The translations under genes and the position numbers were made by a program. Shown one piece after another: positions 8,013 through 32,815 of a stretch of DNA of 53,654 nt; the stretch's first letter is position 1, and each line of letters opens with the position of its first letter. Origin of the DNA: Patescibacteria group bacterium (lineage in GTDB: Bacteria; Patescibacteriota; Minisyncoccia; Moranbacterales; UBA9337); assembly GCA_042569905.1 (NCBI GenBank), contig JBHPHA010000005.1:1-53654 (forward strand), written 5' to 3'. The notes below the pieces were generated by a model. That model ran no database searches. It saw only the letters and a program-made list of their open reading frames with translations, and was not told where the DNA came from.

Positions 8013-8047
8013 ATTTTTCTAACTTTTAATATATAGTAAATTATTAT

Positions 8048-9934: not shown

Positions 9935-10070
9935 ATATAAATCTCGCATCAACAAAATATATATTAGCACAGTCACAAAGAATGTCAAGAGCACTTGATT
10001 AGATTTGGGATAGAAAATCAAGACCTACACTCAGCTAAATCACCAAATTGCCTTATTACTAATTATTTGA

Positions 10071-10166: not shown

Positions 10167-10247
10167 TAACAATCAAAGTTTTTTAACAGCAAAATAGTTA
10201 TATTTCAAAAAGCTCATTTTTGAGCTCAATTTCAAGGAGATTACACC

Positions 10248-11039
10248 ATGACTCAGATTCCTGCAATCAAAAAAAACGGCGACTTGGAAAAAACAGCAAC
10301 GAGAATTTTCCCAAAAATGAACATCCCTGAAAATCCGGGGCAACTCGAGATTTTTGTGGAAGAAAGATCCTTCTTTCTTGCCGAAAAAACAATCCTAAAG
10401 ATGAGGGGAACAAACCTGCAAGCCAAGACCTTATGTCCGGCTTGCGAACGAGGCTTCCGTCAACCTGAACGGTTGATCTGCCAACATTGTTTCGATGAAC
10501 ACGGCTGGCCTTTGGCCCACGCCGTGGCAGCAGAAATCGCATTGGTCTCAAAAAAGGAGTTTAAAACTCTCCTCGAGGAGACCGAGAAGGTCGCCCGTGA
10601 AAACGGTGGCGCCCAGTTCATCTCCGGCAAATCCCGTAAAGAAGCAGTTGCTTCGATTCGGGACAAGGTTGATTTCGATGTCATTGACGCAACCATTTTC
10701 GCCGCAATAAAGGTCATCGGGTATGATTTACGCAAAGAGGAAGCGGCAGAGAATAAGAAGGTTAGCGACCAAAAAGTCGCGGCTTTAAGAAAAACCGTCA
10801 AGAGCATGCCGGGTGTTACTGGTGAATCCGCTGAGGACTTCGCCAATCGGGTGCAAAAAAGACTGCAACCCGATGTCGGATGGTTCAAAATATTGAAAGT
10901 GTGCACCTCGGTGCACGAAACACGAAACCGCCCAGTTGCCAAAAAAGAACCGGTACAAAAACCGGCCTTCAAAAAAGGAGGAGGCTCCACATTCGGAGAT
11001 CTCTTAAAAGCAGCGGCCGAACAAAAAGCCGCTAAGTAA
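10248..11039 (+). CDS. hypothetical protein with a CxxC..CxxC zinc-ribbon motif
   Basis: AAGGAG SD, CPAC..CQHC, own promoter and terminator; more GC-rich than flanking genes. Confidence 0.8.
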   Translation: MTQIPAIKKNGDLEKTATRIFPKMNIPENPGQLEIFVEERSFFLAEKTILKMRGTNLQAKTLCPACERGFRQPERLICQHCFDEHGWPLAHAVAAEIALVSKKEFKTLLEETEKVARENGGAQFISGKSRKEAVASIRDKVDFDVIDATIFAAIKVIGYDLRKEEAAENKKVSDQKVAALRKTVKSMPGVTGESAEDFANRVQKRLQPDVGWFKILKVCTSVHETRNRPVAKKEPVQKPAFKKGGGSTFGDLLKAAAEQKAAK

Positions 11040-11065
11040 ATAAGAGCAACGCGACAACGTCGCAC

Positions 11066-11103
11066 AACCAGCCCAGAAACATTAGTTTCAGGGCTGGTTT
11101 TTT
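11066..11103 (+). terminator. intrinsic terminator
   Basis: AACCAGCCC..GGGCTGGTT plus T-run. Confidence 0.85.
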
Positions 11104-11141
11104 GTTCAAATTACTGAATTGATTAATCGCCAATTATTTTT

Positions 11142-11233
11142 AAATTTAATCATTGAAAATTGATTTTAAACTGAAAACTGAAAATTTTAAATTCACCCTC
11201 ATTCCCTCTTGACAAATTATCTATAATATGCTA
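11142..11233 (+). promoter_or_regulatory. duplicated promoter segment (copy 2)
   Basis: Near-identical to 10071-10162, including TTGACA; a third partial copy of the AT-rich part lies at ~12385-12441. Confidence 0.75.
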
Positions 11234-11344
11234 CACCTACCTATTAAAGTTACTTTACAAATAAATACAATATTTTAATATTTTGTTAAATCTCAGCCCT
11301 CAGCTGATTTACTTAAACGGCAAAAAACCAAAAAGGAGCCTGCC

Positions 11345-12262
11345 ATGAGAACCGTTACAATCACAGTAAATGGAAAAACTATCAACATCAACCCATCTGT
11401 CATCGACGCCATGCGTCGAGAGGAAGAAAACAGAAACTGCCCCGCCTGTGACAAGCGTCGGCATTCCAATTATGTAACCTGTGCGAATTGCGCCAGTACA
11501 TACCCAGGAATTCAGGACGAGATTAAAAAACTCGTCCGAGAAGTTCCCCAGGAAGTTTTCTCTCGAGCCATTACATTGGCCCGACAGGCTGTTACAGCTG
11601 GGGTTCCGACCAAGGATCCAGACCAAAAATCGGCATTGGCTCACGCCATCCGGACAGAGATCTTACTAGAACACGATGGACCGTTTCACATCGGATCCTT
11701 CTTTGCTGCCATCGCGGTGGCAAAAAAGCCCGTCAAACGCGATTCATTTGACCTGGCCGTTGAGGCCATGGTCGCCGCCATAGAAGAAGGCGGGGTGAAT
11801 TCCGTAACACTGGAAGAAGTTGGAAGAAAAAGTGCACCCCGGCTCTCAGACAAAGCCATTTACGCAGCCAAGCTAAGAGCCTGCGATCAAACCCAGGCAA
11901 AACTCAGTGATATGGATTTTGAGGAAGCTAGAAACTTCCTCTTAATAAATTCAGACATCATCTCCTTCGAGGAGATGGTTCATGTTATTGAAAAAAGAAA
12001 CTTAGGCTTCAGTATCCAGATGTCCGAAAAGAAAGTGCATGCAATTGTACTTTCTGTCCGCGACGAAATAGGACTAAACAAGATCGTTGCGCAAGTAACT
12101 CGGAATCACCAAGAGCCATTATCTCCAACACTCCTTGAGACAGCTCATGCGCCGAAGGTGCCTGGTAATGGTAAAAGAATCAAGAGAGCTGCTCGCAAAA
12201 AAAGGCACAAACTTGACCAACAACGTATTGAAAAAATGAGAGATTCAGGATTCATAGCATAA
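11345..12262 (+). CDS. hypothetical protein with a CxxC..CxxC zinc-ribbon motif
   Basis: AAGGAG SD, CPAC..CANC, basic C-terminus, own terminator; GC-rich. Confidence 0.8.
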   Translation: MRTVTITVNGKTININPSVIDAMRREEENRNCPACDKRRHSNYVTCANCASTYPGIQDEIKKLVREVPQEVFSRAITLARQAVTAGVPTKDPDQKSALAHAIRTEILLEHDGPFHIGSFFAAIAVAKKPVKRDSFDLAVEAMVAAIEEGGVNSVTLEEVGRKSAPRLSDKAIYAAKLRACDQTQAKLSDMDFEEARNFLLINSDIISFEEMVHVIEKRNLGFSIQMSEKKVHAIVLSVRDEIGLNKIVAQVTRNHQEPLSPTLLETAHAPKVPGNGKRIKRAARKKRHKLDQQRIEKMRDSGFIA

Positions 12263-12289
12263 TATGCCATGTCCATCTTCTCAAATCAC

Positions 12290-12330
12290 ACAGACCCAGG
12301 AACTAAATAATGTTCCGGGTCTGTTTTTTT
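12290..12330 (+). terminator. intrinsic terminator
   Basis: ACAGACCC..GGGTCTGT plus T-run. Confidence 0.85.
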
Positions 12331-18149: not shown

Positions 18150-20750
18150 TTACCCAACCACCAAACTAATCAATTTCCCTGGGACAAAAATCACTTTTCT
18201 GATTTCTTTTCCTTCCATGTGTTTTTGAACATTCTCGCTTTCAAGAGCCAACTCTTTTGCACCAACTTCATCAATGTCTGCGTCTACTGTAATTTTGTCA
18301 CGCACTTTTCCGTTCACCTGAACAACTAGCTCAACCTTTTCATCTACAATTAAATCAGGATTGTGCTTTGGCCAATCGCTCAAAAATATTGACTGTTCAT
18401 TTCCAAATTTTTCTCTCCAAATTTCCTCTGCCATATGCGGAGCAAATGGAGCTAATATTCTCAAAAATTTCTCCATTCCTGATTTCGGCAGTCTTTGATG
18501 CCCGGTCGCTTCGTTCACGAAAATCATCATCTGAGAAATTGCTGTATTGAAATCAAAATTCTCAATGTCTTTCGAAACTTTTTGAATTGTCTTGTGAAGA
18601 AGTGTCGGCATTCCATCCGGAGCACCATCACAATCACCCTTGCAGTCATACAATTCTTTTTCATCAAAAAGTCTCCAGACTCTGTCCAAAAATTTCTTAG
18701 CACCAGTAAGTCCCTTTGTACTCCAGACAGTGCTTTGAGAAAATGGTCCCATAAACATCTCATATACACGAAGAGCATCTGCTCCGTACACCTCCACAAT
18801 GTCATCCGGATTAATCACATTCCCCCAGCGCTTGCTCATCTTTCTTCCGTCTTCCGCCATAATCAAGCCAACATGCTGCAGTCTTGTGAAAGGTTCCTCA
18901 TGATTCACAACTCCAATATCAAACAAGAATTTGTGCCAAAAACGAGCATAAATCAAATGTCTTGTTGCGTGCTCTGCTCCACCAACATAAAAATCAACTG
19001 GTGACCAATATTTCTCCTTATCTTTATCTACCAAAGCATCGTTATTTTTCGGATCAATATATCTCAAATAATACCAAGAAGATCCTGCCCATTGTGGCAT
19101 TGTGTTGGTTTCTCTTTTTGCTTCACCTCCACATTCAGGACATTCGACATTTACCCAGTCTTCAATCGTCGCCAAAGGAGATTCCCCTGTTCCAGATGGC
19201 TCATAGTGTTCAACATCCGGAAGAGTCACTGGCAAATCTTTTTCAGGAACCGGAACAACTCCACACTTCTCACAATGAATCACAGGAATCGGCTCCCCCC
19301 AATATCTCTGCCTTGAAAAAACCCAGTCTTTCAATTTATAATTCACTTTTCTTCCACCAAGATTATTCTCCTCCAACCACTTAATCATTTTCTCTCGAGC
19401 TTCAGAAGATTTCAGTCCTGTAAACTCTCCAGAATTAACAAGAATACCATCTCCAAAATATCCTGGGTATTCACCCTTAAAGTTCTCCTCTTCTAAAGCT
19501 TTTAACAATCTTTCAAAATTTTCCCTCTCATCTCTTTCTTGAGCCTCTATCATACCCTGACCTCCTCCAAATATATGTAAATATTTTTTAAAATAACTTT
19601 TTTTAAAATCTTCAATATTTTTCGGTTTAACAACATACTTAATAGGCAGAGAACTTTTCAGTTCTCTTATAGCAATTTTATCCAAAAAATCACGATCTCT
19701 TTCATCATGAGCTGGAACCGCCATCACAGCACCTGTTCCATAGTGACCCAAAACATAGTCCGCTACAAAAACTGGAATTTCTTTTCCATTGAACGGATTT
19801 ACTGCTTTGATTCCCTTGATCTCAACACCAGTCTTATCCTTTTGAAGTTCAGTTCTTTCAAGTTCAGTTTTTTTATTTGAAGCCTTAATATAATTCTGAA
19901 TTTCTTCATAATTACTAATCACTGATTCATGTTCGCTAATCATTGGATGTTCAGGTGCTATCACCATATACGTACACCCAAAAATAGTGTCTACTCTTGT
20001 GGTGAAAACTTCAATATTCCCCTCATCACTTTTTTCACTCTTAATCCCAAATTTAATCACACTGCCTTCACTTTTTCCAATCCAGTTTCTCTGCATATCC
20101 TTGATTGATTTTTCCCAATTTGGAAGCTTGTCCAAATCTTCAAGCATTTTGTCAGCATAGTCAGTGATTTTCAAAACCCACTGCCTCATTGGCTTTTGCT
20201 CAATCTCACTATCACATCTTTCACATCTTCCATCTTCCAAATCTTCATTCGAAAGTCCAGTCTGGCACCCAGGACACCAATTGATCGGCTCATGTGATTC
20301 ATATGCCAAACCTTTTTCAAGCATCTTCAAAAAGCACCATTGAGTCCATTTATAATATTCTGGGTCAGTTGTGTTAATCTCTCGATCCCAATCATAACTA
20401 AATCCAATTTTTTTTAATTGATTCTTAAATGTTGCAATATTTCTCTCATTCATCTCACGAGGATGAGTTTTGTTTTTCAAAGCATAATTTTCCGCAGGCA
20501 AACCAAAAGCGTCCCATCCCATAGGATGAAGAACATTGAAGCCCTGCATCATTTTCATACGCGCAAAAATATCAGTTGCGATATATCCTTTTGGATGACC
20601 AACATGTAGACCCTCTCCGGAAGGATAAGGAAACATATCTAAAATATAGAACTTAGGCTTTTCAGTATCCTCACCAACTTTATATAATTTCTCATCATCC
20701 CATTTACTCTGCCACTTTTTCTCTGCTTCCTTATGATTATAGTTTTTCAT
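18150..20750 (-). CDS. leuS: leucine--tRNA ligase
   Basis: MFPYPSGEGLHVGH, VFTTRVDT, GTGAVMAVPAHDERD, SRQRYWGEPIP, KMSKR. Confidence 0.98.
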   Translation of the reverse strand: MKNYNHKEAEKKWQSKWDDEKLYKVGEDTEKPKFYILDMFPYPSGEGLHVGHPKGYIATDIFARMKMMQGFNVLHPMGWDAFGLPAENYALKNKTHPREMNERNIATFKNQLKKIGFSYDWDREINTTDPEYYKWTQWCFLKMLEKGLAYESHEPINWCPGCQTGLSNEDLEDGRCERCDSEIEQKPMRQWVLKITDYADKMLEDLDKLPNWEKSIKDMQRNWIGKSEGSVIKFGIKSEKSDEGNIEVFTTRVDTIFGCTYMVIAPEHPMISEHESVISNYEEIQNYIKASNKKTELERTELQKDKTGVEIKGIKAVNPFNGKEIPVFVADYVLGHYGTGAVMAVPAHDERDRDFLDKIAIRELKSSLPIKYVVKPKNIEDFKKSYFKKYLHIFGGGQGMIEAQERDERENFERLLKALEEENFKGEYPGYFGDGILVNSGEFTGLKSSEAREKMIKWLEENNLGGRKVNYKLKDWVFSRQRYWGEPIPVIHCEKCGVVPVPEKDLPVTLPDVEHYEPSGTGESPLATIEDWVNVECPECGGEAKRETNTMPQWAGSSWYYLRYIDPKNNDALVDKDKEKYWSPVDFYVGGAEHATRHLIYARFWHKFLFDIGVVNHEEPFTRLQHVGLIMAEDGRKMSKRWGNVINPDDIVEVYGADALRVYEMFMGPFSQSTVWSTKGLTGAKKFLDRVWRLFDEKELYDCKGDCDGAPDGMPTLLHKTIQKVSKDIENFDFNTAISQMMIFVNEATGHQRLPKSGMEKFLRILAPFAPHMAEEIWREKFGNEQSIFLSDWPKHNPDLIVDEKVELVVQVNGKVRDKITVDADIDEVGAKELALESENVQKHMEGKEIRKVIFVPGKLISLVVG

Positions 20751-20900: not shown

Positions 20901-21073
20901 ACACCTATTAAAAGTACAGCCTCGGAAAATATTTTTCATTTTTAATATACTCCTACTCTACTCCATTTCTCGCTTTTTTTCAACCAAGACTTTCTTCAGA
21001 ATCCCCATATTCTACTACAAAATTAAAAAAGGCGTGTATTGCATATTAGCAACCACGCTTTTACTCTTTTTTC

Positions 21074-21865
21074 TTAATTTCTGCCCAAAGAATTCTCTCT
21101 TTCAAGGATATACATCAGCTCATCTTCCGCAAGACCATCTATTTTTTCCTGGTCCCACCGAAAGTCTTTAATGATACACACGCTTTTGTGAAAAGAATTA
21201 AATATTTCACCAACAGAATTCTTGATTTCATTCCAAAAAATCAATTTCCAAAAATAATAGCAAAGAGCTCCAGCTAAAATCGTTGAAGCAGTTAACCAAT
21301 ACCATTTTATTGCGCCATCGCTTATAAATACTCCACTAAAATCACATGATGAGATAACACCCACTAGCCCAGAAACTATTACATATGCCACACAGGTACC
21401 GAGTGCTATGATAACAAACTTCCCCGGAACCCATCGATGCTTTCCAAATTTTAGCGACTCTATTTCTTTGACTTCAAGATCCAAATCCTCACCAGAATAT
21501 GGACGATATTTAAAAACGATCCTCTTAGCCGCGAGAAATGCCCCAAAATTACCCAAAAAAATCATTATGAAAATAAGGAGCGATTCAACCGCATGCTCAA
21601 AAATACTTAACCCAAGCATTCCAGAGACACTGCACAGATTTATTGCTTCAGGCTTCTTTTTCAGATATCTAGTCAAAAATCGAAAAACCCAACTATCCTC
21701 ATCAGTTGAATCCATAAAAATCAAAACAGAAACTGTCAGCCACAAAGTAAAGCACCCGCCAAAAAAAATAGCTCCGACTATCCTCCCACCAAGTACACAT
21801 GCTGCAAGCGATAAAACACTTACAATAAACCAAGTCATTAAACTATTTGCATATTCATCCCTCAT
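21074..21865 (-). CDS. hypothetical multi-pass membrane protein
   Basis: Several hydrophobic segments; AGAGG SD before the ATG at 21865; promoter ~21925-21952 and a downstream terminator. Confidence 0.7.
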   Translation of the reverse strand: MRDEYANSLMTWFIVSVLSLAACVLGGRIVGAIFFGGCFTLWLTVSVLIFMDSTDEDSWVFRFLTRYLKKKPEAINLCSVSGMLGLSIFEHAVESLLIFIMIFLGNFGAFLAAKRIVFKYRPYSGEDLDLEVKEIESLKFGKHRWVPGKFVIIALGTCVAYVIVSGLVGVISSCDFSGVFISDGAIKWYWLTASTILAGALCYYFWKLIFWNEIKNSVGEIFNSFHKSVCIIKDFRWDQEKIDGLAEDELMYILERENSLGRN

Positions 21866-22012
21866 CACAACACCTCTCTTTTTAATTATTTTCAAGAAAC
21901 CTTCGCCCTATTTGGACACCAAATACTAACACGGTATGAATCGAGGTGTCAACTAAAAAAGCATAGATTTATTATCAATCTATGCTTTTGATTTTACTTT
22001 TTCACCCAGAAA

Positions 22013-22549
22013 CTATTTTCCTTCACCGTCTCCACTGAAGATGCTTTTAATCCCATGCCCAATACCCTTCACATATTCACCAGTCTTTTTAGCACCCCAT
22101 TTAGCTGCACCGACAGTGGCATCACCAATCATTCTGCTCCTATTAAGCTCGGTCTTCGTGACCGATAAATCATCCTCGGTGTCGAATTAACCATCCTTAC
22201 CAGAAGAAAGAGCTGTGTAAGCTATGTACATTCCATCAGGATCATCCTCGCGAATGACTTGAATCATGCCTCCCCATGCATCAATCTCCTGCGAATATCC
22301 AGTCGGCGCTTCGCTTTTTCTCGCCTCTATTGCAACTTCGGTAAGAATTTCTGTAGTCTCAACTGTTTTATGAGTGACTAAATAATGAATCCCGAAACCT
22401 GTAGCTATGAGCGCCAAGATGCCTCCAATCACCCATAAGAAAGCACTTTCGTTTGAGCCATCACCTCTTCGATTACCGCCTCCAACAGCTCCAATAAGTC
22501 CACAAAAAAGTTCCCCAAAAAGTTCCCCAATAAACTCAAACATAGTCAA
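22013..22549 (-). pseudogene. membrane protein with a GspG/pseudopilin-like DxWG..SxGxDG..TxDD motif, interrupted by an in-frame TAA
   Basis: The frame continues past TAA at 22187-22189: SSGKDG*FDTEDDLSVTKTELNRSRMIGDATVGAAKWGAKKTGEYVKGIGHGIKSIFSGDGEGK, ending at TAG 22013. Confidence 0.7.
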
Positions 22550-22734
22550 TCCCCCTTATTGTTTTTGTTAACCATCAGCGACTAGCAAGTCCCGTGTCTT
22601 AATTTAAAATAACTACCCCTAATCAACATAAAATATTACTACAGACTGAACAAAAAGTCAATACGTAATACTAATTTTAACAAAAAAATAAGGTGAAAAA
22701 TCATTATAATCTTTCACCCTTAAGTTAACTCGTC

Positions 22735-23010
22735 TTATATTAGATTTGAAGAGAAAATAGCTACAACCCCGATTTCAGAGTCAAAATCCAACAACTCCTC
22801 ACTTTCCATATCTCGACTTTCACCATAACAGATAACCCGAAATTTTCCTCCACATTTCTGACAAATAAAGCTCTTGCAGTCACCAACCCTCATCACATGA
22901 ACAACTTTCGAAACATCGCGATCAACACCACACAACCTATTTCCAGCAAGATATCCTTTGGTTGATATTTGACCACCACAAACAATACTATTATTGACTA
23001 CTTTACTCAT
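22735..23010 (-). CDS. small Cys-rich hypothetical protein
   Basis: Overlaps the stop of the upstream ORF (ATGA coupling); CQKC motif; terminator at ~22685-22720. Confidence 0.6.
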   Translation of the reverse strand: MSKVVNNSIVCGGQISTKGYLAGNRLCGVDRDVSKVVHVMRVGDCKSFICQKCGGKFRVICYGESRDMESEELLDFDSEIGVVAIFSSNLI

Positions 23011-23231
23011 AATAATCTTCCCCGAGCATTCTTTTGATTCATCAGCCTCTCGTGATCCATCAAATCCTTAATATTGATAAATATTTTTATCGTATTACCA
23101 CATCCAGAACAAATCAAATCAATACGCTCAACTCGTAAATCAATTTTAGACAAATCATTCACTAATCTACAATTAGCGCACCCCACTAACTTATATTGAC
23201 CAAGAGTAAGATCAAATCCATTTTTCTTCAT
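23007..23231 (-). CDS. small zinc-ribbon-like hypothetical protein
   Basis: AAGGAG SD; CANC..CSGC. Confidence 0.65.
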   Translation of the reverse strand: MKKNGFDLTLGQYKLVGCANCRLVNDLSKIDLRVERIDLICSGCGNTIKIFINIKDLMDHERLMNQKNARGRLL

Positions 23232-23254
23232 TTCTTCTCCTTTTTTAAAGTACT

Positions 23255-23340
23255 AAAAAAACTGACCCACCAAGGCCAGCTTATTTTTATCAAGAAAATT
23301 TTTCTAAATCTTACTTCTGAACAAAAACAAATTGACCTCT
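23255..23340 (-). promoter_or_regulatory. attenuator (antiterminator/terminator) after a Phe-rich leader peptide
   Basis: Terminator AAGCTGGCCT-TGGT-GGGTCAGTTTTTTT; the segment AGGTCAATT in the leader can pair with the terminator 5' arm. Confidence 0.7.
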
Positions 23341-23400
23341 GAGGCGAGCCCAAAAGAAGAAAAAGAAAAAATATGAAATTTTACTAATTTGTCTTTGCAT
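23311..23400 (-). CDS. aromatic-amino-acid (Phe-rich) leader peptide, 29 aa
   Basis: MQRQISKISYFFFFFFWARLRGQFVFVQK, directly after a TTGCAT-16-TATAAT promoter (23421-23448). Confidence 0.7.
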   Translation of the reverse strand: MQRQISKISYFFFFFFWARLRGQFVFVQK

Positions 23401-23513
23401 AAGTTTATATTAATAACTTTATTATATTCCTTTAATAAAATAATGCAAATCAACAGATAAATCGCAAATTAAAAAGGAAGAAATTTCATTGAATTTCTTC
23501 CTTAAAATAGATA

Positions 23514-23699
23514 TCAGTAGAAATAGATAGAAGCACTTTTTTTCCTCTTCTTTAATGCCTCTATCACCTCATCTATACCAGCTTCGCGCTCAATATTTGA
23601 TAATCCCTTGAGCTCTTGAATTTTTTTAATAATGTCAGAAAACTCATCCTCAAATGAATTATTTTTATTCGCAACATGAGAAAATAATTGAGATGCCAT
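23514..23699 (-). CDS. small hypothetical protein
   Basis: Strong AAGGAGG SD; terminator hairpin at ~23470-23505. Confidence 0.55.
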   Translation of the reverse strand: MASQLFSHVANKNNSFEDEFSDIIKKIQELKGLSNIEREAGIDEVIEALKKRKKSASIYFY

Positions 23700-23717
23700 A
23701 ATAACCCTCCTTTTTTA

Positions 23718-23942
23718 TTACCAAGTACAAGGCCTTGTTTTTTTCAATGGACCATTGCAGCTATGCAGTACGCCTCTGACAAATTTTTGCCTCGTCATCT
23801 TTCCTACACGCTTCAACCCACACTCAACATTGTCACAGCTCCAGCAATACGTAACACTTTCCGACTTAAAATACTGACAACCAATAATCTTACTACACGC
23901 GGAACAAAAAATTCTCAAAGTTAAATTACTAATTTCACACAT
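23718..23942 (-). CDS. small Cys-rich hypothetical protein
   Basis: Start moved to ATG 23942 (AGGGG SD, after the T-box terminator); CSAC..CWSC plus further Cys residues. Confidence 0.6.
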   Translation of the reverse strand: MCEISNLTLRIFCSACSKIIGCQYFKSESVTYCWSCDNVECGLKRVGKMTRQKFVRGVLHSCNGPLKKTRPCTW

Positions 23943-23986
23943 AATTATTCCCCTATTTTCACTAGTTAAAGAACTATTTTTCCAAC

Positions 23987-24270
23987 AAAAAAAACTCCTC
24001 ATCCTTATGCGCATAATTCACATAAGAATTATGTGAAAGGACGAAGAGTCTTCGTGGTACCACCTTTTTTTATGAAAATAAAAATCACCCCGTGGGTGCC
24101 ATACTTCCATCTCATCAACTTTTACTCAATAACAAAAGAGTCAACATTGATTATCCCATGATTACGGAGGATGCCGAGATTCCACTAACGCAGAAGCCAC
24201 TTTTTTGATTATTTCATCAAAAGAATCAGACCCAGCCCTCTGAGAAATCAGAGGATCTAATTCATAAGTT
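23987..24270 (-). promoter_or_regulatory. T-box riboswitch-like leader
   Basis: Antiterminator AAAGG-TGGTACC-ACGAAG/CTTCGT-CCTTT with the 7-nt UGGNACC bulge; competing 13-bp terminator ACTCTTCGTCCTT/AAGGATGAGGAGT plus T-run; CCGTAA F-box-like motif; promoter TTGACA-16-TAAGAT at ~24293-24320. Stem I is atypical. Confidence 0.75.
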
Positions 24271-24412
24271 TTATTATTTTTAAAGTAATTTTATCTTAAC
24301 AAAGGTGCATATTTTGTCAAATTTAATCAAAAATATCAAAATTAAAAGCCCTCTTTGAATTCAGTGCACATTGGCACAAAAAACAAAAAGGGCTGTTCTT
24401 CTTATCTCCGTA

Positions 24413-25018
24413 CTACTTAAAGTACTGATCTCTTGTTAGCTTATAGTCAAACCCATCAGACAAAGCCTCTAAATTAGCATCATTAATATTATGCGAGACG
24501 CTTGCAGTTACCCATGAACACTCCTTATCCTTAAATTCAATAGCAACTCTAACCTTAGCATCAGATCCAATATTGCAGTTGGAAGCCATAGCCACATTAT
24601 AATCCACTAATTCAACTTCCTCGAGGCTCTTAAATATTCTGGACAATGCTTTTTTTATTACATTATTAGTTGCATCTACGGGACCATTTCCACTAGAAGC
24701 AGTGTGAACTTTTCCTGCTCCTGCGATGTTAACTTTGATAATTGCCTGCACCAATGAATCCCTATCCATACGATACTTATGATTGTCCAATTTGTATTCT
24801 ATGATTTCAAAAAATTTATGCCTAAAACCTTCCATTCCATACACAATAAGCTCCAACGTTGCAGGTGCATCTAAAATACAATAACCCTGATCATCTAATC
24901 CTTGGAGTCTTTCGACGATATCATCTAAATCCCCATCTCCAGTCTTTAACTTCCGACCTCTTTCCTCAAGAAGAGCAATGGCACATTTCTCGTAATCCTC
25001 TCTAGTAACTACACGCAT
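24413..25018 (-). CDS. stand-alone C-terminal linker and allosteric domain of the citramalate/isopropylmalate synthase family
   Basis: LQGLDDQGY..ATLEL, AIIKVNI..GNGPVDA, VELVDYNV, GSDAKVRVAIEF..SW..VSHNI..ALSDGFDYKL resemble the CimA C-terminus. No TIM barrel. AGAGG SD before ATG 25018. Confidence 0.8.
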   Translation of the reverse strand: MRVVTREDYEKCAIALLEERGRKLKTGDGDLDDIVERLQGLDDQGYCILDAPATLELIVYGMEGFRHKFFEIIEYKLDNHKYRMDRDSLVQAIIKVNIAGAGKVHTASSGNGPVDATNNVIKKALSRIFKSLEEVELVDYNVAMASNCNIGSDAKVRVAIEFKDKECSWVTASVSHNINDANLEALSDGFDYKLTRDQYFK

Positions 25019-25099
25019 AAACAAACCTCTTTTTCTGAAATTTATGTTTGATGAAAAAATCACATAGCTGCGTAATATTTCAGCTACATGAAGACTATC

Positions 25100-26704
25100 C
25101 TACAGAATACTTTCCAAAAGCCAGCTGTAGCAATTAGCAAACGCCTGAGCTGAAGCTTGGTTTGTGTCAGGATGAACAGAGCGACCTACATGAACTTGAT
25201 TTACTCCATTGGAAACACCAATTCGAGCATAAGCATCTGCAACTGCATCTGATCCTTTTCCCAAAGATACTGCGTGCCAATTATCCAGCTCTATTTCCAG
25301 CCCATTAATTTGTGGAAAATGTCGACCCACAATCGCATGAACTGCATTCATAATGGCATTATAAGGACCATTACCAATACCAGCTGCAATCTCAATTACA
25401 CCTCCTATCTCCATCTTGACCGTAGCAGTTGGAAGAGTTCCAGATCCGCCGATTGCCTGGCAATCGATAATCTTTAAATAATTAGGAATCCCAGAAACAG
25501 CATCCTGAACAACCGCCGCTAACTCCCTATCATTCAATGGGGACCCATTCTTAGAAGTAGATATATCCTTGAATTTTTCAAAGATCAGACCTATCTGATC
25601 ATCCTTGATATTAAAACCAAGTTTGACCAACCTATGCAGTAGTCCGTCTCTTCCAGATGATTGAGTAACTTCTACAGACAGTCCTTTGTGTCCATACACC
25701 TTCGGATCCCAACTATAGTAAGCACTACTCTTTCCCTGTTGCTTCGCACGAGCCTCAATTAATTGATGTGTACCAGAACTAACAATAGCGTTCTGAGCTC
25801 CAACAACAACCCAATGACGAGGCACTGACATTCCCAAAGCATTAGCAACATGATTAACAATAGTAACGCACATTTTTGAATCAAAATCTATTTCAACTCC
25901 AGAGAAAACATCTCTGCGAGAATTGATATTCATAATAATAGACTCAAAAGCGGTCATTCCACTTCGCTCACCTAGACCATAAAAAGTTCCCTCAATCTGG
26001 CTAACTCCAGCATTGATAGATTGAAGTGCATTTGCATTAGCGCAACCACTATCATTATGACAATGGACTGAGACCACCACACTCTTCAACTCCTCAATAT
26101 TATCAAACAAAAATGCAATCAGCTCACCAAACTCGCTTAAAACTCTGAGCCCCGTAGTGTCCGCAATATTAACCCTTGTTACACCAGCATCAATGACTGC
26201 TTTGATAATTTGAACCAAAAAAATTCTCTCAGTTCGAGCTGAATCTTCTGGAGTATATTGAATATGCTCAAATCCTATTGACTTCGCATATTCCACCATC
26301 TCAATAGCTCGTTCAATAACCCATTTTCTTTTTCCCTCAGGAGAATCTCCGTATTTTTCAGAATCAAATTGAGTAAGTAAAAATTCATCACTAGCTGGAA
26401 TATAAATATGAACCATATCACACCCAGCAGTTTTTACCGCATCAATATCCGCTTTAGTGGCCCTAGCCAATCCTGATAATATCGGCTTTTTATTCCCATT
26501 CCACGATTCAACAAATTGAACAATTCTTCTGCATTGCTTCATCTGCTCCTCAGAGCTACCTGGAAAACCTATCTCAATAGCATCTATTCCACCTTTCAAT
26601 AAAAGTCGCACATATTCAGATTGATCTCTTGGAGACATTGCCCCATTACTCACCTGAGCCGACTCTCTTAAGCAAACATCATTCAACAAAACCTTTTTAC
26701 GCAT
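25100..26704 (-). CDS. leuA: 2-isopropylmalate synthase-like DRE-TIM metallolyase
   Basis: DVCLRESAQ, IEIGFP, EDSART, NIADTTG, SVHCHNDSG, GLGERSG, and a C-terminal regulatory domain (PTATVKM..GNGP). Confidence 0.8.
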   Translation of the reverse strand: MRKKVLLNDVCLRESAQVSNGAMSPRDQSEYVRLLLKGGIDAIEIGFPGSSEEQMKQCRRIVQFVESWNGNKKPILSGLARATKADIDAVKTAGCDMVHIYIPASDEFLLTQFDSEKYGDSPEGKRKWVIERAIEMVEYAKSIGFEHIQYTPEDSARTERIFLVQIIKAVIDAGVTRVNIADTTGLRVLSEFGELIAFLFDNIEELKSVVVSVHCHNDSGCANANALQSINAGVSQIEGTFYGLGERSGMTAFESIIMNINSRRDVFSGVEIDFDSKMCVTIVNHVANALGMSVPRHWVVVGAQNAIVSSGTHQLIEARAKQQGKSSAYYSWDPKVYGHKGLSVEVTQSSGRDGLLHRLVKLGFNIKDDQIGLIFEKFKDISTSKNGSPLNDRELAAVVQDAVSGIPNYLKIIDCQAIGGSGTLPTATVKMEIGGVIEIAAGIGNGPYNAIMNAVHAIVGRHFPQINGLEIELDNWHAVSLGKGSDAVADAYARIGVSNGVNQVHVGRSVHPDTNQASAQAFANCYSWLLESIL

Positions 26705-27556: not shown

Positions 27557-30500
27557 TTAATTTCCACCTGTGCTTTCAACAATCCACCAATCAAACTCGA
27601 TATTATCAGCAGTAATCTCAGTAACTCCAATATCGAATCCCTCTTCAATTTTCACATTATCTGAGAACAAGGTGAGACTAGTAGCACTCCTTGGTGTCAC
27701 AAATATCCTACTATCATCACTAATTGCCTTAGTTTCAATAAAAATAGTCTTTCCATCATTCACGATTCCCTCTTCTGTGTTGTCGTCAATCCAATTACCA
27801 TCCTCATCCACTGGCATTGACTCACTTGTCAGGTCATCATTTCCATCTTCATCCGCGTCTTTTGGAATTGCATTTCCAGAACAATCATCTAGGTCATCCT
27901 CATCCTCATCTACTGGAATCACTGAACAGATTGTTGCTCTACCGATTGTTGGAGCTTCATCATCATCTATTGTAATGACGAAACCTTTTCCTTCTACTAT
28001 CTCTGCTTTCAGGTTTCCTTCTAACGTTACATTCCCATCTCCATCTTTAGTGATGAAATTATCTGTGTTAATTGCTAGCATAAAGTCCAGAATTGCCTCA
28101 TCTTGAGTTTTAAGCTCTTCAATTTCTTGAATTTGTCCTTGGAGCTGTGTTTCTAGTGCCAGTTGATTACTTATTTGAGTTTGAATTAGGTTTAAATTTT
28201 CTGTGATTCTTGTTTCAATTTCAATGATTGTCATGTTTTGTGTAGCCAACTGATCACTCACTGTTAGTAAGTCAGTATTTTGCTGATCATCTGAAAGCTT
28301 GATGTCATTTATTGACAATCCCACTAATGCTAATTGTTCGTCAATTGAAGTCTGAAGCTCTGTCAAAGTTGAGGCGTTCTGGTCTGTTTTGAGACTAACA
28401 TCACCAATCACAGTTTTATTTTCGCCTGTCTTTTCTAATAACCCCTTAACTCCAAACAGAGCCACACCTGCCATATCTGTTGCCTTAACATTTGTATCTG
28501 ACGCTCCGAGTCCAAATAATTTATAGAAATCCTGAGCAGTTGGTCCAATATGTCTAATCTCTTCATCGCTCATCTTATTGTAGTCTCCCTCATTGATGAA
28601 ATTCCATTGCATAATTGGAAGAATTGACATTCTATTGAAAAACTCACTTGTATCCAAATTCACATCTGATCCGTCCGCATATTCAATCGCATCAATAGTA
28701 GAGCCATTTCCATTCCATGTTCCTAATCCCACAGGATTCACAGTAACATCGCTAAGTTTAGTAAAGTTTTCCTTCTTATTTCTATCAGACACATCTGTCC
28801 AACCAGAAGTTGTTCCATAAGTATCTGAATCCAATTCAATTAAGTGAGTTGGGGCTGTTGCAGCAGCACCAATACCAAAAGATCCATCCGCAATAAACCT
28901 TGCCCTTTCAGTGGATCCACTTCCTGTGTAAAAAGCAATTTCTCCTGAATCATTACTATTTAATATCTGAACATTACCGGTTGAAGCCCTATTACTAAAC
29001 TGAGCATTATTTAACGTAGTATATGAAACCAATGCTCTAGCTATACCAGTAGAGTCGTTAATTTTATAACCTTGAGCGTTATCTAAAAGCACACTTCCTG
29101 AGTCAATAACCAGTTTTTCATTTGGATTTGTTATTCCAATCCCAGCATATCCTCGTTCGCTAATAACAAAATCAACATTATCACTCGAATCCCTGACAAT
29201 GAATTGAGCTGGTAATTTATCTGGAGATGTATCATTTGCATTATCTGAAAACGCCGCACCTACTGTCAAACTTGTGTCACTTGCAATTGCCATCACCGTT
29301 CTTGTTTGCCCCGTTACTGTAATTCTATCTCCCACGATCAATTCATCTGTAAATATCGTCCCCACACCCGTTACTGTTGTGCTTGCAACAGGATCAATTG
29401 TTCCTGTCAAGACTGTAGTAGTCGCTGCAGTTGTTCTTGTTGTTCCTGCAACATCCAGCATTGTCTCTGGAGAAATCGTTCCAAGACCGATTCCATTATT
29501 CCTGATTCCTCCCGCTCCATCTGATTCAGCATAAACAGTTAGAATGCTACTTCCATCAATCATTGCGCTGTAACTTTCCACCGTACCAATAGATGCAGAT
29601 GATGTCACTGGCATATCTACCCATGAGACCGCTCCACTATTTGCAGCAAATTCCATTGCTCCAAGATATGCGCTTCCTGCTACCTCAAGATCCCCTGAAA
29701 CCATCACGCTGTCACTCGCTGCTGCAAGCGTTGATGATGTTGAACCAATGTGCAGCGCTACTTCTGGAGTTGCGTTTCCAATTCCTAGGTAATCACTCGT
29801 ATCATCCCAAAACAAATTAGAATTATCTTGAGAATAAACCCCACTAGCTCCAGCAAAAACTAACGAACCGGTTGTAAATTGTGTTGCTGTTCCGGTTCCT
29901 CCATTAGCTGCAGGAAGAGTTCCTGAGACATGAGTTGAAAGTCCAATCTTTCCCCAACTTGGTGAAACCCCTACTCCTCCAGAGATTAGTGAGTTTCCTG
30001 TAGCTACTCCTGCTAGTTTTGATAGGGTCGTTGTTCCTGATGCGTAAATCAAGTCTCCTACTGTGTAAGACGCTAGCCCTGTTCCTCCTGTTGCGACTCC
30101 TAGAGTTGCTGAAACAGACCATGTTCCACTTGAAATGGTTGGTACTCCAGTTGAACTTGATGTGTCAATTCCTGTTCCTCCATAGGTTGCTCCGATTGCA
30201 GTTCCATTCCAAGTTACGCCTGAGATTGTTGAGTCTAGATTAATTGTTGCTGTATCAGTAGCTGATACAGCTGAGGTTAAGTTAGTTCCACCTGCAATTG
30301 TTAACGTATTCCCATTTTGCACTGTCTCACTTCCTGAATCTCCTGCCAATGTAAAAGATCCTCCTGCTCCTTGTCCTGAATAGAAAGTAGTCTGACCTGA
30401 TCCATCCCCAATAACCAATCTATTATCATCACTATCCCACTCAATCACAGCCTCTGTAGTTGGTGTCGGAGTTGCTGAATTAACTAAAGTTATTGCTGAA

Positions 30501-32815
30501 GTTCCAATTGTACCACTAGCTATTGTTAGATTATTTGCGACCAGTGAATCAGGAAGTGTTGCTGAAACAGACCATGTTCCACTTGAAATGGTCGGAACCC
30601 CTGTTGATGAGCTTGTGTCTATTCCTGTTCCTCCATTAGCTGCAGGAAGAGTTCCTGAAACATGAGTTGTGAGTCCAATCTTTCCCCAGCCTGGAGCTAC
30701 TCCTACTCCTCCAGAGATTAGTGAGTTTCCTGTTGCTACTCCTGCAAGTTTTGATAGGGTCGTTGTTCCTGATGCGTAAATCAAGTCTCCTACTGTGTAA
30801 GACGCTAGCCCTGTTCCTCCTGTTGCGACTCCTAGAGTTGATGAAACAGACCATGTTCCACTTGAAATGGTTGGTACTCCAGTTGAACTTGATGTGTCAA
30901 TTCCCGTTCCTCCATAAGTTGCTCCGATTGCAGTTCCATTCCAAGTTACGCCTGAGATTGTTGAGTCTAGATTAATTGTTGCTGTATCAGTAGCTGATAC
31001 AGCTGAGGTTAAGTTAGTTCCACCTGCAATTGTTAACGTATTCCCATTTTGCACTGTCTCACTTCCTGAATCTCCTGCCAATGTAAAAGATCCTCCTGCT
31101 CCTTGTCCTGAATAGAAAGTAGTCTGACCTGATCCATCCCCAATAACCAATCTATTATCATCACTATCCCACTCAATCACAGCCTCTGTAGTTGGTGTCG
31201 GAGTTGCTGAATTAACTAAAGTTATTGCTGAAGTTCCAATTGTACCACTAGCTATTGTTAGATTATTTGCAACCAGTGAATCAGGAAGTGTTGCTGAAAC
31301 AGACCATGTTCCACTTGAAATGGTCGGAACCCCTGTTGATGAGCTTGTGTCTATTCCTGTTCCTCCATTAGCTGCAGGAAGAGTTCCTGAAACATGAGTT
31401 GTGAGTCCAATCTTTCCCCAGCTTGGAGCTACTCCTACTCCTCCAGAGATTAGTGAGTTTCCTGTTGCTACTCCTGCAAGTTTTGATAGGGTCGTTGTTC
31501 CTGATGCGTAAATCAAGTCTCCAGTTGTGTAACTAGCCAGTCCTGTTCCACCATAAGCAACTCCAATAATTGAACCATTCCAAGTCGTTCCTGAGATTGT
31601 TGAACCTAGATTAATTGTAATTGTGTCAGTTGCACTAGCTACTGTTGAGATGTTTGCTCCTCCTGCAATTTCCAGAGTGTTTCCATCTTCAATAGCTTGA
31701 TCTGTTCCAGAGTCTCCTGAAAGAGTGAAGTCGTTGAAAGTCCCTCCTGATGATACTGTTTCCCAAGATAGTGTTGGCACTCCTGCATTCCAATTGAATC
31801 TTAGATATTGCGCGTCATCTCCAGCCACACCATCTAGTGATGCCAGAGCGGTTGAGCTTGATGCATATGGAACTGAGCCTGGCACTAAAGTAAGTGCATT
31901 TAGATAACCTAATTCAGTCAGACTTGAACCTCCAAATGTTTGAGTTGAATTAAAAGTAATATTTCCAGTCATTGTTCCCCCTGTAGTGTCCAGATAGTTT
32001 CCTGTAGCGCTACCAATGTCACTGTAAGTTATTCCGTCGTTTGAGTACTGCCAAGTTGAACTTGCTCCGTTGTATCTCAAAGCTGGTTTTGCTGAACTGT
32101 TTGAAACAGTTAGATCAAAGTTATTTGAAACAGCTTTGTTTCTTCCTAGATTGAAAGTTAGAGATTTTGTTCCTGTGTCTGTGTTTTGATCATGCAGTCT
32201 GTCGTCGTCTCCTTGAACGTAGTCGCTATCTCCTGTTCCTGTTGGAATGAATTCTTCATCAATTTCTCCGTCTTCATTTAGAACAATGAGCTTATCTTCT
32301 TTTGATCCAATTGGCAAAAGGTCTGAGCTAATCTCTCCATCTTCATTCAGGATTGGAATATTATCTTCCCCTGTTCCCACAATATAACCTTGAAGTTTAT
32401 CTGAGTTTAGAGCCAAAGGAACATATCCAATTGGTTTTCTTGGTTTTGATTCTGAATCATTCTCAATTTTAATTCCTATGTAGTATTCTTTTTCTGAGAA
32501 ATCTATGTCTTCTGGAAGATTTTTATCTTGCCCTAATTGAGTATCAAAGAGCCCACCCTTAACTTCTACGTCTTGGGTTTCTGACCATTCACTGCTTCCT
32601 CCTGTTTTTGATGTGTATATTGCAAATCTTACTGAGTATGTTCCATCACTTACCGCTTCATTATTTTTATCGAGGATATATGCTGAAATATCTAGCGCTT
32701 TGTCTATTTGAGCTAGTGCTACTTGAGTAAGTAAAAACAGCCCACTCACCAAGAGTAGTATTATAGATAAAAGAAGGGTTTTTATCGATTTATTTTTGTT
32801 TCTATGATTGAACAT
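27557..32815 (-). CDS. large secreted/surface fibre-like protein with an intramolecular chaperone (peptidase S74-like) domain
   Basis: Signal peptide; G/S/T-rich GGTG repeats; GIG..P..L repeats; SDRNKKENF..IMQWNF..HIGPTAQDF chaperone motif; coiled coil; acidic C-terminus. Confidence 0.85.
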   Translation of the reverse strand: MFNHRNKNKSIKTLLLSIILLLVSGLFLLTQVALAQIDKALDISAYILDKNNEAVSDGTYSVRFAIYTSKTGGSSEWSETQDVEVKGGLFDTQLGQDKNLPEDIDFSEKEYYIGIKIENDSESKPRKPIGYVPLALNSDKLQGYIVGTGEDNIPILNEDGEISSDLLPIGSKEDKLIVLNEDGEIDEEFIPTGTGDSDYVQGDDDRLHDQNTDTGTKSLTFNLGRNKAVSNNFDLTVSNSSAKPALRYNGASSTWQYSNDGITYSDIGSATGNYLDTTGGTMTGNITFNSTQTFGGSSLTELGYLNALTLVPGSVPYASSSTALASLDGVAGDDAQYLRFNWNAGVPTLSWETVSSGGTFNDFTLSGDSGTDQAIEDGNTLEIAGGANISTVASATDTITINLGSTISGTTWNGSIIGVAYGGTGLASYTTGDLIYASGTTTLSKLAGVATGNSLISGGVGVAPSWGKIGLTTHVSGTLPAANGGTGIDTSSSTGVPTISSGTWSVSATLPDSLVANNLTIASGTIGTSAITLVNSATPTPTTEAVIEWDSDDNRLVIGDGSGQTTFYSGQGAGGSFTLAGDSGSETVQNGNTLTIAGGTNLTSAVSATDTATINLDSTISGVTWNGTAIGATYGGTGIDTSSSTGVPTISSGTWSVSSTLGVATGGTGLASYTVGDLIYASGTTTLSKLAGVATGNSLISGGVGVAPGWGKIGLTTHVSGTLPAANGGTGIDTSSSTGVPTISSGTWSVSATLPDSLVANNLTIASGTIGTSAITLVNSATPTPTTEAVIEWDSDDNRLVIGDGSGQTTFYSGQGAGGSFTLAGDSGSETVQNGNTLTIAGGTNLTSAVSATDTATINLDSTISGVTWNGTAIGATYGGTGIDTSSSTGVPTISSGTWSVSATLGVATGGTGLASYTVGDLIYASGTTTLSKLAGVATGNSLISGGVGVSPSWGKIGLSTHVSGTLPAANGGTGTATQFTTGSLVFAGASGVYSQDNSNLFWDDTSDYLGIGNATPEVALHIGSTSSTLAAASDSVMVSGDLEVAGSAYLGAMEFAANSGAVSWVDMPVTSSASIGTVESYSAMIDGSSILTVYAESDGAGGIRNNGIGLGTISPETMLDVAGTTRTTAATTTVLTGTIDPVASTTVTGVGTIFTDELIVGDRITVTGQTRTVMAIASDTSLTVGAAFSDNANDTSPDKLPAQFIVRDSSDNVDFVISERGYAGIGITNPNEKLVIDSGSVLLDNAQGYKINDSTGIARALVSYTTLNNAQFSNRASTGNVQILNSNDSGEIAFYTGSGSTERARFIADGSFGIGAAATAPTHLIELDSDTYGTTSGWTDVSDRNKKENFTKLSDVTVNPVGLGTWNGNGSTIDAIEYADGSDVNLDTSEFFNRMSILPIMQWNFINEGDYNKMSDEEIRHIGPTAQDFYKLFGLGASDTNVKATDMAGVALFGVKGLLEKTGENKTVIGDVSLKTDQNASTLTELQTSIDEQLALVGLSINDIKLSDDQQNTDLLTVSDQLATQNMTIIEIETRITENLNLIQTQISNQLALETQLQGQIQEIEELKTQDEAILDFMLAINTDNFITKDGDGNVTLEGNLKAEIVEGKGFVITIDDDEAPTIGRATICSVIPVDEDEDDLDDCSGNAIPKDADEDGNDDLTSESMPVDEDGNWIDDNTEEGIVNDGKTIFIETKAISDDSRIFVTPRSATSLTLFSDNVKIEEGFDIGVTEITADNIEFDWWIVESTGGN
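29895..31522. repeat. intragenic 732-bp tandem repeat (~2.2 copies)
   Basis: Identical blocks recur at 732-bp offsets (AAGTCTCC ends at 30058, 30790 and 31522), giving a 244-aa protein repeat. Confidence 0.95.

Follow-up and report, generated by a model that had tools for sequence, protein, structure and literature searches.

Does an RNA leader that lies in front of two small orphan open reading frames (ORFs) in the genome of a Patescibacteria group bacterium represent a T-box, that is, a tRNA-sensing riboswitch, and, if so, could it still function despite an aberrant decoding domain? The leader was identified in contig JBHPHA010000005.1 of GenBank assembly GCA_042569905.1, which was analysed over a stretch of 53,654 nucleotides (nt), hereinafter the window. 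The element spans positions 24320-23987 of the window and is located on the minus strand, as are all genes around it; unless stated otherwise, the features described below belong to that strand. An earlier note on this DNA, made from the sequence alone, had proposed a T-box-like element with these boundaries, which correspond to the -35 hexamer and the last U of the terminator tail, and the element proves to be real, combining a full-length match to the RF00230 family with a promoter, an antiterminator and a competing terminator. As modelled here, the leader is a T-box-derived RNA in which the sensor of the tRNA end and the terminator are intact whereas the codon-reading half has been rebuilt, and we lean, on balance, to the view that it is a working tRNA-dependent transcription attenuator in a Patescibacteria-like genome.

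The covariance model RF00230 (T-box) aligns end to end (model positions 1-219) with 24274-24034, with a cmscan score of 44.2 bits and E-values of 3e-8 in a local search and 1.5e-6 in a search of the whole window on both strands; this is the only T-box match in the window. Thus, the covariance-model check suggested in the earlier note came out in favor of the T-box assignment, albeit with a score below the Rfam gathering score, and because of that shortfall, the default Rfam scan, in which only a tRNA was reported, missed the element, which was recovered when an E-value threshold was used in place of the gathering score. Other sub-threshold Rfam matches in 23400-24500 (mir-2002, Srn266, a snoRNA and others) had E-values of 0.13 to 9.4 and were dismissed as noise. 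The leader is about 300 nt long, and its fold as a whole has a z-score of -5.66, with none of 100 shuffles as good.

In the predicted structure, the 3' half of the leader, namely, the Stem IIA/B pseudoknot, Stem III, the antiterminator and the terminator, is canonical. The antiterminator (24066-24037; fold energy -6.0 kcal/mol, cmscan posterior *) consists of helix A1 (24066-24063 with 24040-24037) and helix A2 (24055-24050 with 24046-24041) and contains the 7-nt bulge UGGUACC (24062-24056), which fits UGGNACC and in which U24059 faces the tRNA discriminator; accordingly, both the canonical antiterminator that had been proposed earlier and the prediction from UGGU of a tRNA carrying A at the discriminator are upheld. 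The intrinsic terminator (24052-23987) is a long bipartite hairpin (24052-23991) with a U8 tract (23994-23987), and it reuses the 3' strands of both A1 and A2, so that the two structures are, as claimed, mutually exclusive, at -29.6 kcal/mol for the terminator against -6.0 kcal/mol for the antiterminator. The terminator dominates the minimum free energy (MFE) structure of the whole leader. It does not act as a sequestrator of a ribosome-binding site (RBS): in the predicted fold, the RBS of the first ORF lies 30 nt past the terminator and is not paired with the leader. Upstream of the antiterminator, the pseudoknot (24176-24153) is formed by IIA (24176-24174 with 24167-24165) and by the IIB loop (24172-24168 with 24157-24153), a predicted 5-bp pairing that was read from the sequence by eye, whereas IIA and the F-box-like CCGUAA are aligned by cmscan with a posterior of 9 to *. 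Stem III (24110-24072; -13.5 kcal/mol) has the 5' flank AUGAG and the 3' flank AA, and so matches, at 4/5 and 2/2 positions, the motif RRRxG...AA that is described as flanking Stem III (PMC7583486). Between the pseudoknot and Stem III, there is an extra linker hairpin (24150-24115; -7.3 kcal/mol), which is an insertion in the cmscan alignment.

The element appears to have a transcription unit to itself. A sigma-70-type promoter at 24320-24293, with TTGACA (24320-24315), a 16-nt spacer that includes TGn, and TAAGAT (24298-24293), matches the consensus at 10 of 12 positions and is the best among the 15 promoter-like sites in 22500-25200; transcription would start at about 24286, some 7 nt after the -10 hexamer. 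Further upstream, a terminator-like hairpin with a U-rich tail (24394-24347) was found in the fold of 24412-24330 (-26 kcal/mol, z-score -4.51, none of 200 shuffles as good). Because this hairpin closes the preceding unit, which encodes a LeuA-like protein and a protein with only a LeuA_dimer domain, and because the leader has a near-consensus promoter of its own, as already suggested in the earlier note, the leader is best regarded as a separate unit. At the other end, a 12-bp stem followed by a U-rich tail (23503-23474) terminates a unit of two ORFs, of 74 and 61 amino acids (aa). Beyond it lie another promoter, two ORFs with CxxC motifs (74 and 91 aa), a terminator and two membrane-protein-like orphans with promoter-like sites of their own; next is leuS, which starts at 20750, 3.2 kb downstream of the leader. 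These boundaries rest on consensus matches and fold predictions. Taken at face value, they support the proposal that the leader acts directly on the 74-aa and 61-aa ORFs, which are set apart from leuS by the terminator at 23503-23474 and by additional pairs of promoters and terminators. Control of leuS by the leader is not plausible, and the leader lies after, not before, the LeuA-like genes.

By contrast with the 3' half, the decoding half is, in our model, non-canonical: two hairpins on a short base helix take the place of Stem I. The domain (24269-24199; MFE -23.3 kcal/mol, z-score -4.08, none of 200 shuffles as good) begins with a 4-bp base helix (24269-24266 with 24202-24199), which is followed by a 2-nt joiner and by the two hairpins, which abut without linkers. 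A three-way-junction model in which the base helix closes both hairpins has an energy of -22.4 kcal/mol, about equal to the MFE, and cmscan places the Stem I base at 24268-24267 with 24201-24200. Hairpin 1 (24263-24223; 41 nt, 16 bp, -17.8 to -18.4 kcal/mol) has a UUUC loop (24247-24244) and, in its 3' strand, a bulge of 5 nt, which can form in two registers with an unpaired core at 24236-24232; in the cmscan alignment, it appears as a 32-nt insert that replaces 41 consensus positions of the distal Stem I. Hairpin 2 (24222-24203; -4.9 kcal/mol), which is inserted on the 3' strand of the would-be kink-turn (K-turn), consists of 7 bp capped by the hexaloop GAAAUA (24215-24210), whose unpaired probability is at least 0.99. 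The position of Stem II (24198-24176) is occupied by an irregular plain hairpin that has 6 bp and a further 2-3, capped by a GUUA loop. No internal loop of the Specifier Loop form, in which an S-turn and a codon with a purine after it lie about 4 bp above the K-turn, was found. The earlier description of an atypical Stem I thus holds, although the single short hairpin that was then perceived is an incomplete account, given the two abutting hairpins on the 4-bp base helix and the lack of an S-turn in Stem II as well.

From the family resemblance, the predicted folds with their energetics and the predicted unit boundaries, we infer tRNA binding, a codon site and an amino-acid identity, and the following mechanism could be envisaged. 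RNA polymerase would start some 7 nt after the -10 hexamer and, by default, the long terminator would form, so that transcription would stop at the U8 tract. The 3' NCCA end of an uncharged tRNA with A at the discriminator, or possibly G by wobble, would pair with the UGGU of the bulge and stabilise the weak antiterminator, while its anticodon might be read by the hexaloop of hairpin 2. The polymerase would then read into the two-ORF unit that ends at 23503-23474, and the 74-aa and 61-aa products would be expressed as starvation-response proteins.

To place the element in its phylogenetic context, a search with LeuS yielded 589 relatives, and the best 80 loci, at most 68% identical, were examined. 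Nearly all of these come from metagenome-assembled genomes (MAGs) titled Falkowbacteria, Parcubacteria, Paceibacteria, Moranbacteria, Saccharibacteria or Patescibacteria, with some automated titles that read Gammaproteobacteria or Bdellovibrionales. By its LeuS relatives, the host is therefore Patescibacteria-like, i.e. a member of the candidate phyla radiation (CPR), and belongs neither to Firmicutes nor to Actinobacteria, which raises rather than lowers the interest of the element. Two of the 80 loci contain T-boxes. In a Paceibacteria MAG, a T-box (L023:692-910; 51.5 bits, below the gathering score) directly precedes ileS (an ORF of 1175 aa), in a unit located 7 kb upstream of leuS. Its Stem I is ultrashort, with a clean K-turn, a 5-bp stem and the hexaloop CGAUCA (AUC+A), and has no distal platform; its Stem II bears an S-turn of the AGUA/GAA type, and its terminator ends with U6 (L023:692-947). 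This leader and the one in the window share the CCGUAA variant of the F-box, and the UGGUACCACG core together with the first A2 pair, A-U, is identical in the two. Leaders of this style, as the ileS case demonstrates, are used by members of the Patescibacteria group. The second T-box is represented by its 3' part (L017:1-92; 39.2 bits), which has UGGA in the bulge and a terminator of -34.7 kcal/mol and directly precedes glyS (L017:1-149); the 5' half falls outside the locus. The MAG in question is unclassified, but its LeuS clusters with those of Patescibacteria. The 5' flanks of Stem III are AAGAG and GAGAG in the ileS and glyS leaders, respectively. With respect to the first A2 pair, a G.U pair in this position is described as a steric sensor (PMC7583486); such a pair is present in the glyS leader, whereas the window leader has A24055-U24041, with the U retained and no G.U wobble.

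A 45-position antiterminator model (R1) that was built from the window, ileS and glyS leaders and searched against the 80 loci and the window (1.41 Mb) detected only these three sequences, with 43-50 bits (50.5 for the window), and the next match had 18.6 bits. Because the three scoring sequences are the training set, their scores are not independent evidence, and what R1 adds is that nothing else in the 1.41 Mb scores as a T-box. Among the candidates that were rejected, a regular-expression match in locus L013 falls within sequence that looks coding, and cmscan did not recover it at E-values up to 0.01, the 18.6-bit match, in L025, is without the ACC of the bulge, and the matches in L080 and at 21171-21122 of the window have about 13 bits each. 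Outside the core, the MAFFT alignment of the window and ileS leaders was too poor for a joint model.

Upstream of leuS, the T-box core was found in none of the 69 related loci that include at least 400 nt before the leuS match (L003, L006, L012, L018, L026, L028, L039, L051, L053, L056 and L069 were dropped on this count), so the synteny check speaks against the idea that the element is an orphaned leuS leader. Of the five glyS genes in the 80 loci, one has the T-box core and the other four are without it. This survey suggests that T-boxes are present in the Patescibacteria group but are patchy in distribution and unlinked to leuS. Within the window, neither RF00230 nor the antiterminator model detected a T-box-like leader before metG (47951-49393) or leuS (18150-20750), so that T-box control is not general for synthetase genes in the host genome.

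Class I (transcriptional) T-boxes, such as those of Bacillus tyrS and glyQS, are the obvious standard of comparison. The window leader resembles them (RF00230) in the order of elements, the IIA/B pseudoknot with CCGUAA, a Stem III whose flanks largely fit the purine motif, the UGGNACC bulge between A1 and A2, the terminator that shares strands with the antiterminator and ends in a U-tract, and the promoter of its own; it differs in being without the long Stem I, with the 32-nt insert in place of 41 consensus positions, and in scoring 44.2 bits against 93. The leader is clearly derived from the RF00230 family and would work like a class I T-box, although several defining features of the decoding domain failed to appear. 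The known distribution of T-boxes includes Firmicutes, Actinobacteria, Chloroflexi, Deinococcus-Thermus and Geobacter (PMC3766115), and the Patescibacteria-like host lies outside this range; in the accessible portions of the two surveys PMC3766115 and PMC2494555, the Patescibacteria phylum is not listed. A full-text literature search, whose scope did not extend to subscription papers, Rfam full alignments or TBDB, found no publication that pairs the T-box with Patescibacteria, the candidate phyla radiation, Parcubacteria or Saccharibacteria.

The nearest real neighbor of the window leader is the Paceibacteria ileS leader, with which it shares the phylum-level group, a score below the gathering score, the terminator, the absence of a platform and a hexaloop hairpin beside Stem II. 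Unlike the ileS leader, however, it has two hairpins, no recognizable 3' half of the K-turn, no S-turn, and orphan ORFs instead of ileS. The glyS leader differs from it in reading UGGA, rather than UGGU, and in preceding glyS rather than orphan ORFs. A partial resemblance extends to class II ileS T-boxes of Actinobacteria, those with a short or ultrashort Stem I being exemplified by Mycobacterium tuberculosis and Nocardia farcinica (PMC7583486, PMC10651847); an ultrashort Stem I is described as a mostly translational feature found in Actinobacteria (PMC7583486). The missing platform and the probable codon in an apical loop are shared with the window leader. By contrast, the class II ileS T-boxes sequester the RBS, depend on the purine string within the S-turn of Stem II and precede ileS with the specifier AUC, whereas the window leader has an intrinsic terminator with U8, lacks that S-turn and precedes orphans, and its AUC is base-paired. 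An obscure target is not without precedent, because 54 T-box-preceded genes of unknown function were reported among the 8% of T-boxes (71 genes) located elsewhere than in front of genes for tRNA ligases, transport or biosynthesis (Wels et al. 2008; PMC2494555). In that survey, the specifier was readable and was used to annotate the target; for the window leader, neither specifier nor target lends itself to interpretation, and the targets are very small orphans.

Which codon, then, could be read? The triplets with unpaired probabilities above 0.7 are UUU and UUC in the loop of hairpin 1, GCU, CUG and UGG in its bulge, and GAA, AAA, AAU and AUA; the rule that the specifier is a codon followed by a purine (PMC7583486) retains GCU, CUG, UGG, GAA, AAU and AUA. 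We therefore agree with the earlier conclusion that, from a single sequence, the specifier codon is not readable from the leader. The CTC and TTC triplets that were put forward at that time are possible, and hairpin 2 offers, in its hexaloop, a site no worse than these. Indeed, this hexaloop is favored in our model as the site of codon display because hairpin 2 continues the base helix beside Stem II, in the normal place of Stem I, because the loop equals in size the one that holds the specifier in the ileS leader, and because cmscan and MAFFT both set it against the specifier region. In particular, cmscan places the hexaloop, as GAA-AUA-A, on the 3' strand of the Specifier Loop with a posterior of 3-6, and in the MAFFT alignment, 14 nt of hairpin 2 are aligned with the apex of the Stem I of the ileS leader, with AUC+A in register. 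Read in the manner of the ileS leader (two nt, the codon, A), the hexaloop yields AAU+A (Asn); read by the cmscan alignment, it yields AUA+A (Ile), and AUC+A follows directly after the hexaloop but is paired in the 3' strand of hairpin 2.

The UGGU of the bulge favors tRNAs with A at the discriminator. By general bacterial rules, these are tRNA-Ile, tRNA-Leu, tRNA-Ala, tRNA-Lys and tRNA-Phe, but such rules are unsafe in this genome because the tRNA-Glu(UUC) encoded in the window (9934-9863) has A at this position in the cmscan alignment. This tRNA also appears to have a G1.U72 first pair, and no CCA is encoded. With low confidence, isoleucine, through AUA or the AUC next to it, ranks first among the possible identities, and leucine (CUC or CUG of hairpin 1), asparagine (AAU) and phenylalanine (UUC) remain candidates that rank after it. 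In 28 Pfam-supported genes, AUA accounts for 133 of the 782 Ile codons, which is ordinary use, and CUC and CUG, with 21 and 53 of the 783 Leu codons, are rare.

The two ORFs of the controlled unit differ in their credentials. The first (23942-23718; 74 aa, with AGGGG 7 nt before the ATG at 23942) contains 9 Cys (12%), including CxxC-16-CxxC, and its coding status is doubtful. Its codon log-odds of -0.067 are below those of all 117 coding chunks and above those of 99% of 234 off-frame chunks; its in-frame log-likelihood of -6.04 is below that of all 109 known chunks and close to the -6.07 of the leader itself, and its frame margin is 0.22, whereas known genes have at least 0.256. A typical distance to the terminator and the unstructured character of the region speak for a gene; a structured RNA in 23990-23695 was considered and rejected (fold z-score +1.81). 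No homolog was found in a word-indexed search. An exhaustive HMMER search gave three weak matches (E-values 3.5e-6 to 2e-4) to proteins of 1458-2155 aa, each spanning several short stretches, and these were taken as composition effects. The first match in the ESM Atlas, zinc-finger-like at 0.80, is at chance level, and paralogy with the two downstream CxxC ORFs was not detected (E-values 0.12 and 5.1). The second ORF (23699-23514; 61 aa), which is charged and has no Cys, looks coding: it has a strong RBS (AAGGAGG), a codon score of 0.247 that was exceeded by none of the 234 off-frame chunks, and a frame margin of 0.62. Its Atlas model has a predicted local distance difference test (pLDDT) value of 0.62, with structural neighbors that share no one family and give no function, and no feature match in the ESM Atlas; near-length, word-indexed searches found no homolog of this protein or of the upstream 201-aa protein. 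The label of Cys-rich orphans that these ORFs had been given thus fits the 74-aa ORF, which however scores like non-coding sequence, and does not fit the 61-aa ORF.

The Cys content of the first ORF is no evidence for a gene because off-frame ORFs on this G+T-rich strand reach 18% Cys. The plus strand of the window (1-53654) shows an extreme GC skew, from about -0.2 to -0.39, and nearly all genes are on the minus strand, which explains why minus-strand off-frame ORFs are G+T-rich and often Cys-rich; one example is an ORF of 125 aa with 18% Cys at 52660-53034, within the gene for an AI-2E transporter.

Several of the above observations, together with others, weigh against a functional T-box. 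The score is under half of the Rfam gathering score of 93, although this cut-off is poorly suited to T-boxes of Patescibacteria because the ileS leader, with 51.5 bits, fails it as well. Neither Stem II, where the cmscan alignment deletes the 5' GAA half, nor the region of Stem I has an S-turn (AGUA/GAA). Of the K-turn, the 5' strand UAUGAA is aligned with a posterior of 9 to *, and the 3' strand has AA in place of the expected GA. An elbow-binding platform (AG bulge plus distal loop) is missing, the matching 41 consensus positions being deleted, with no AGAGA/UGxRA pair in the right arrangement, and cmscan gives low posteriors (3-6) around Stem I. The decoding tertiary motifs that are lost here are ones described as important (PMC7583486, PMC10651847): transcriptional T-boxes generally need a long Stem I, and T-boxes with a short Stem I rely on the Stem II S-turn, in which single substitutions reduce tRNA binding more than 1000-fold (PMC7583486). 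Furthermore, the leader is one sequence, with no covariation to draw upon; any codon call is weak because at least eight triplets are exposed; the tRNAs of the host genome are represented by the single tRNA-Glu in the window; by codon usage, the 74-aa ORF scores as non-coding; and both ORFs are orphans, so that their function gives no cross-check.

A serious rival, which we consider a possible although rather unlikely explanation, is that the element is a decaying relic of the leader of a lost or moved aminoacyl-tRNA synthetase or amino-acid gene and is now a constitutive or leaky terminator before junk or new ORFs. This is what one might suppose from a decoding domain without a recognizable 3' half of the K-turn, both S-turns and the platform, in front of an ORF that scores like non-coding sequence, in a region (21000-24400) where no ORF has a Pfam family above the cut-off and where the three ORFs searched, of 74, 61 and (upstream) 201 aa, have no homologs; given the T-box-ileS unit 7 kb upstream of leuS in the Paceibacteria locus, an ancestral order with ileS near leuS is conceivable. 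No remnant of IleRS or GlyRS lies downstream, however: in tblastn, the IleRS of the Paceibacteria locus matches only leuS and metG, and GlyRS matches nothing better than E 0.4. Also against the relic are that the promoter, the pseudoknot, the bulge and the terminator are intact, with the Stem III flanks nearly so, although the neighboring sequence is without detectable relatives, that the fold of hairpins 1 and 2 is far superior to those of shuffles, unlike what random decay would predict, and that the second ORF has coding-like, normal codon usage and a strong RBS. These are also the observations that speak for function.

Less probable still, and in our opinion clearly unlikely, is a leucine-specific T-box of the leu neighborhood, with the specifier CUC+A at the top of hairpin 1 or CUG+G in its 3' bulge. 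The position of the leader between the LeuA-like gene and leuS is suggestive in this respect, and bacterial tRNA-Leu usually carries the discriminator A that fits UGGU. In addition, the core of the bulge is unpaired, CUG+G obeys the codon-plus-purine rule, and an intermediate Stem I with a specifier in a side bulge is a described class (PMC7583486). Yet neither leu gene would be regulated, leuA being located upstream, behind the terminator-like hairpin, and leuS being separated by at least three terminator-like and three promoter-like sites, and none of the 69 related loci has a T-box before leuS. Moreover, the bulge lies 9-11 bp above the base, compared with about 4 bp in the family consensus, CUC+A requires 3 bp to be opened (unpaired probability at most 0.17), and both codons are rare in the host genome.

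It also could be imagined that the sensor is independent of any codon, with the discriminator domain sampling uncharged discriminator-A tRNAs as a general amino-acid-starvation switch. The contrast between the canonical discriminator half and the non-canonical decoding half is in line with this scheme, as are targets that are not amino-acid-specific enzymes and the statement that Stem III and the antiterminator are necessary and sufficient for sensing aminoacylation (PMC7583486). We nevertheless regard it as highly improbable: codon-anticodon pairing is ranked as the strongest, first contact (PMC7583486), the IIA/B pseudoknot, which is described as arranging Stem I and Stem II for decoding, is retained, as are two stable hairpins with exposed loops at the Stem I position, and no precedent was found in the accessible portions of the literature examined. 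Finally, a chance resemblance, with UGGUACC occurring by coincidence in an ordinary terminator and hairpins, could appeal to the score under the Rfam gathering threshold but is already disfavored, and seems extremely improbable, in view of the window-wide E-value of 1.5e-6 with end-to-end coverage of the model, the F-box, Stem III flanks, bulge, both helices, shared-strand terminator and promoter in the right order, and the lack of any other R1 match above 18.6 bits in 1.41 Mb.

One could speculate, although this is rather unlikely, that the element embodies a third solution to T-box decoding, in which the codon is displayed by a two-hairpin three-way junction without a K-turn, S-turns or a platform, hairpin 1 supplies a stabilising contact, and the switch turns on small starvation-response proteins rather than amino-acid enzymes. 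In a bolder form of this conjecture, no codon would be read, and the leader would report bulk uncharged tRNA.

The surroundings of the element have some unusual features of their own. Upstream, in 24413-26704, the LeuA-like protein (534 aa) is far under every NCBIfam equivalog cut-off (best equivalog score 320 bits, against a cut-off of 532); its gene, which is unusual in a group that is generally without amino-acid synthesis, is followed by a gene for a separate 201/216-aa protein that contains only the LeuA_dimer regulatory domain, with the C-terminus of citramalate synthase as the best match, and no leuBCD genes are found near it in the window. Downstream, the next unit has a leader (23232-23470) with a promoter at 23449-23421 and two terminator-like hairpins, at 23356-23336 and 23282-23259, before the RBS; this leader (fold z-score -2.74, no Rfam match) may be an attenuator of unknown type, and the stop and start of the 74-aa and 91-aa CxxC ORFs that follow it overlap. 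Farther away, an orphan ORF of 1752 aa (27557-32815) has normal codon usage and a locally raised GC content of 0.40-0.43, and its sole match is a sub-threshold one to Peptidase_S74 (endosialidase chaperone) near residue 1400. Plus-strand ORFs (263 and 305 aa, neither with a Pfam family) are confined to the stretch 10001-12300, adjoining the tRNA-Glu gene, which has a higher GC content (0.43) and a skew near zero and might have been inserted or inverted. A weak match (7980-8043) to RF00140, the Alpha operon ribosome-binding-site RNA (22.9 bits against a cut-off of 38, E-value 0.36), coincides with the beginning of the S13 gene (7626-8012), which belongs to the S11-S13-S4-RpoA-L17 cluster.

T-boxes are textbook regulators of Gram-positive bacteria, and those described here come from a group outside the range given in the surveys cited above. 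Because all three score below the gathering score, standard annotation would miss them. Two of them, namely, those in the window and before ileS, pair a terminator with a Stem I that has no platform, a combination that is unusual for transcriptional T-boxes according to the 2020 review (PMC7583486). Should the window leader turn out to be a relic, it would document the order in which a T-box decays, the decoding half first, the sensor and the terminator last. If, on the other hand, it is functional, it would show how little decoding apparatus a transcriptional T-box needs and would draw attention to small proteins produced by an ultra-small, amino-acid-auxotrophic symbiont in response to an uncharged tRNA.

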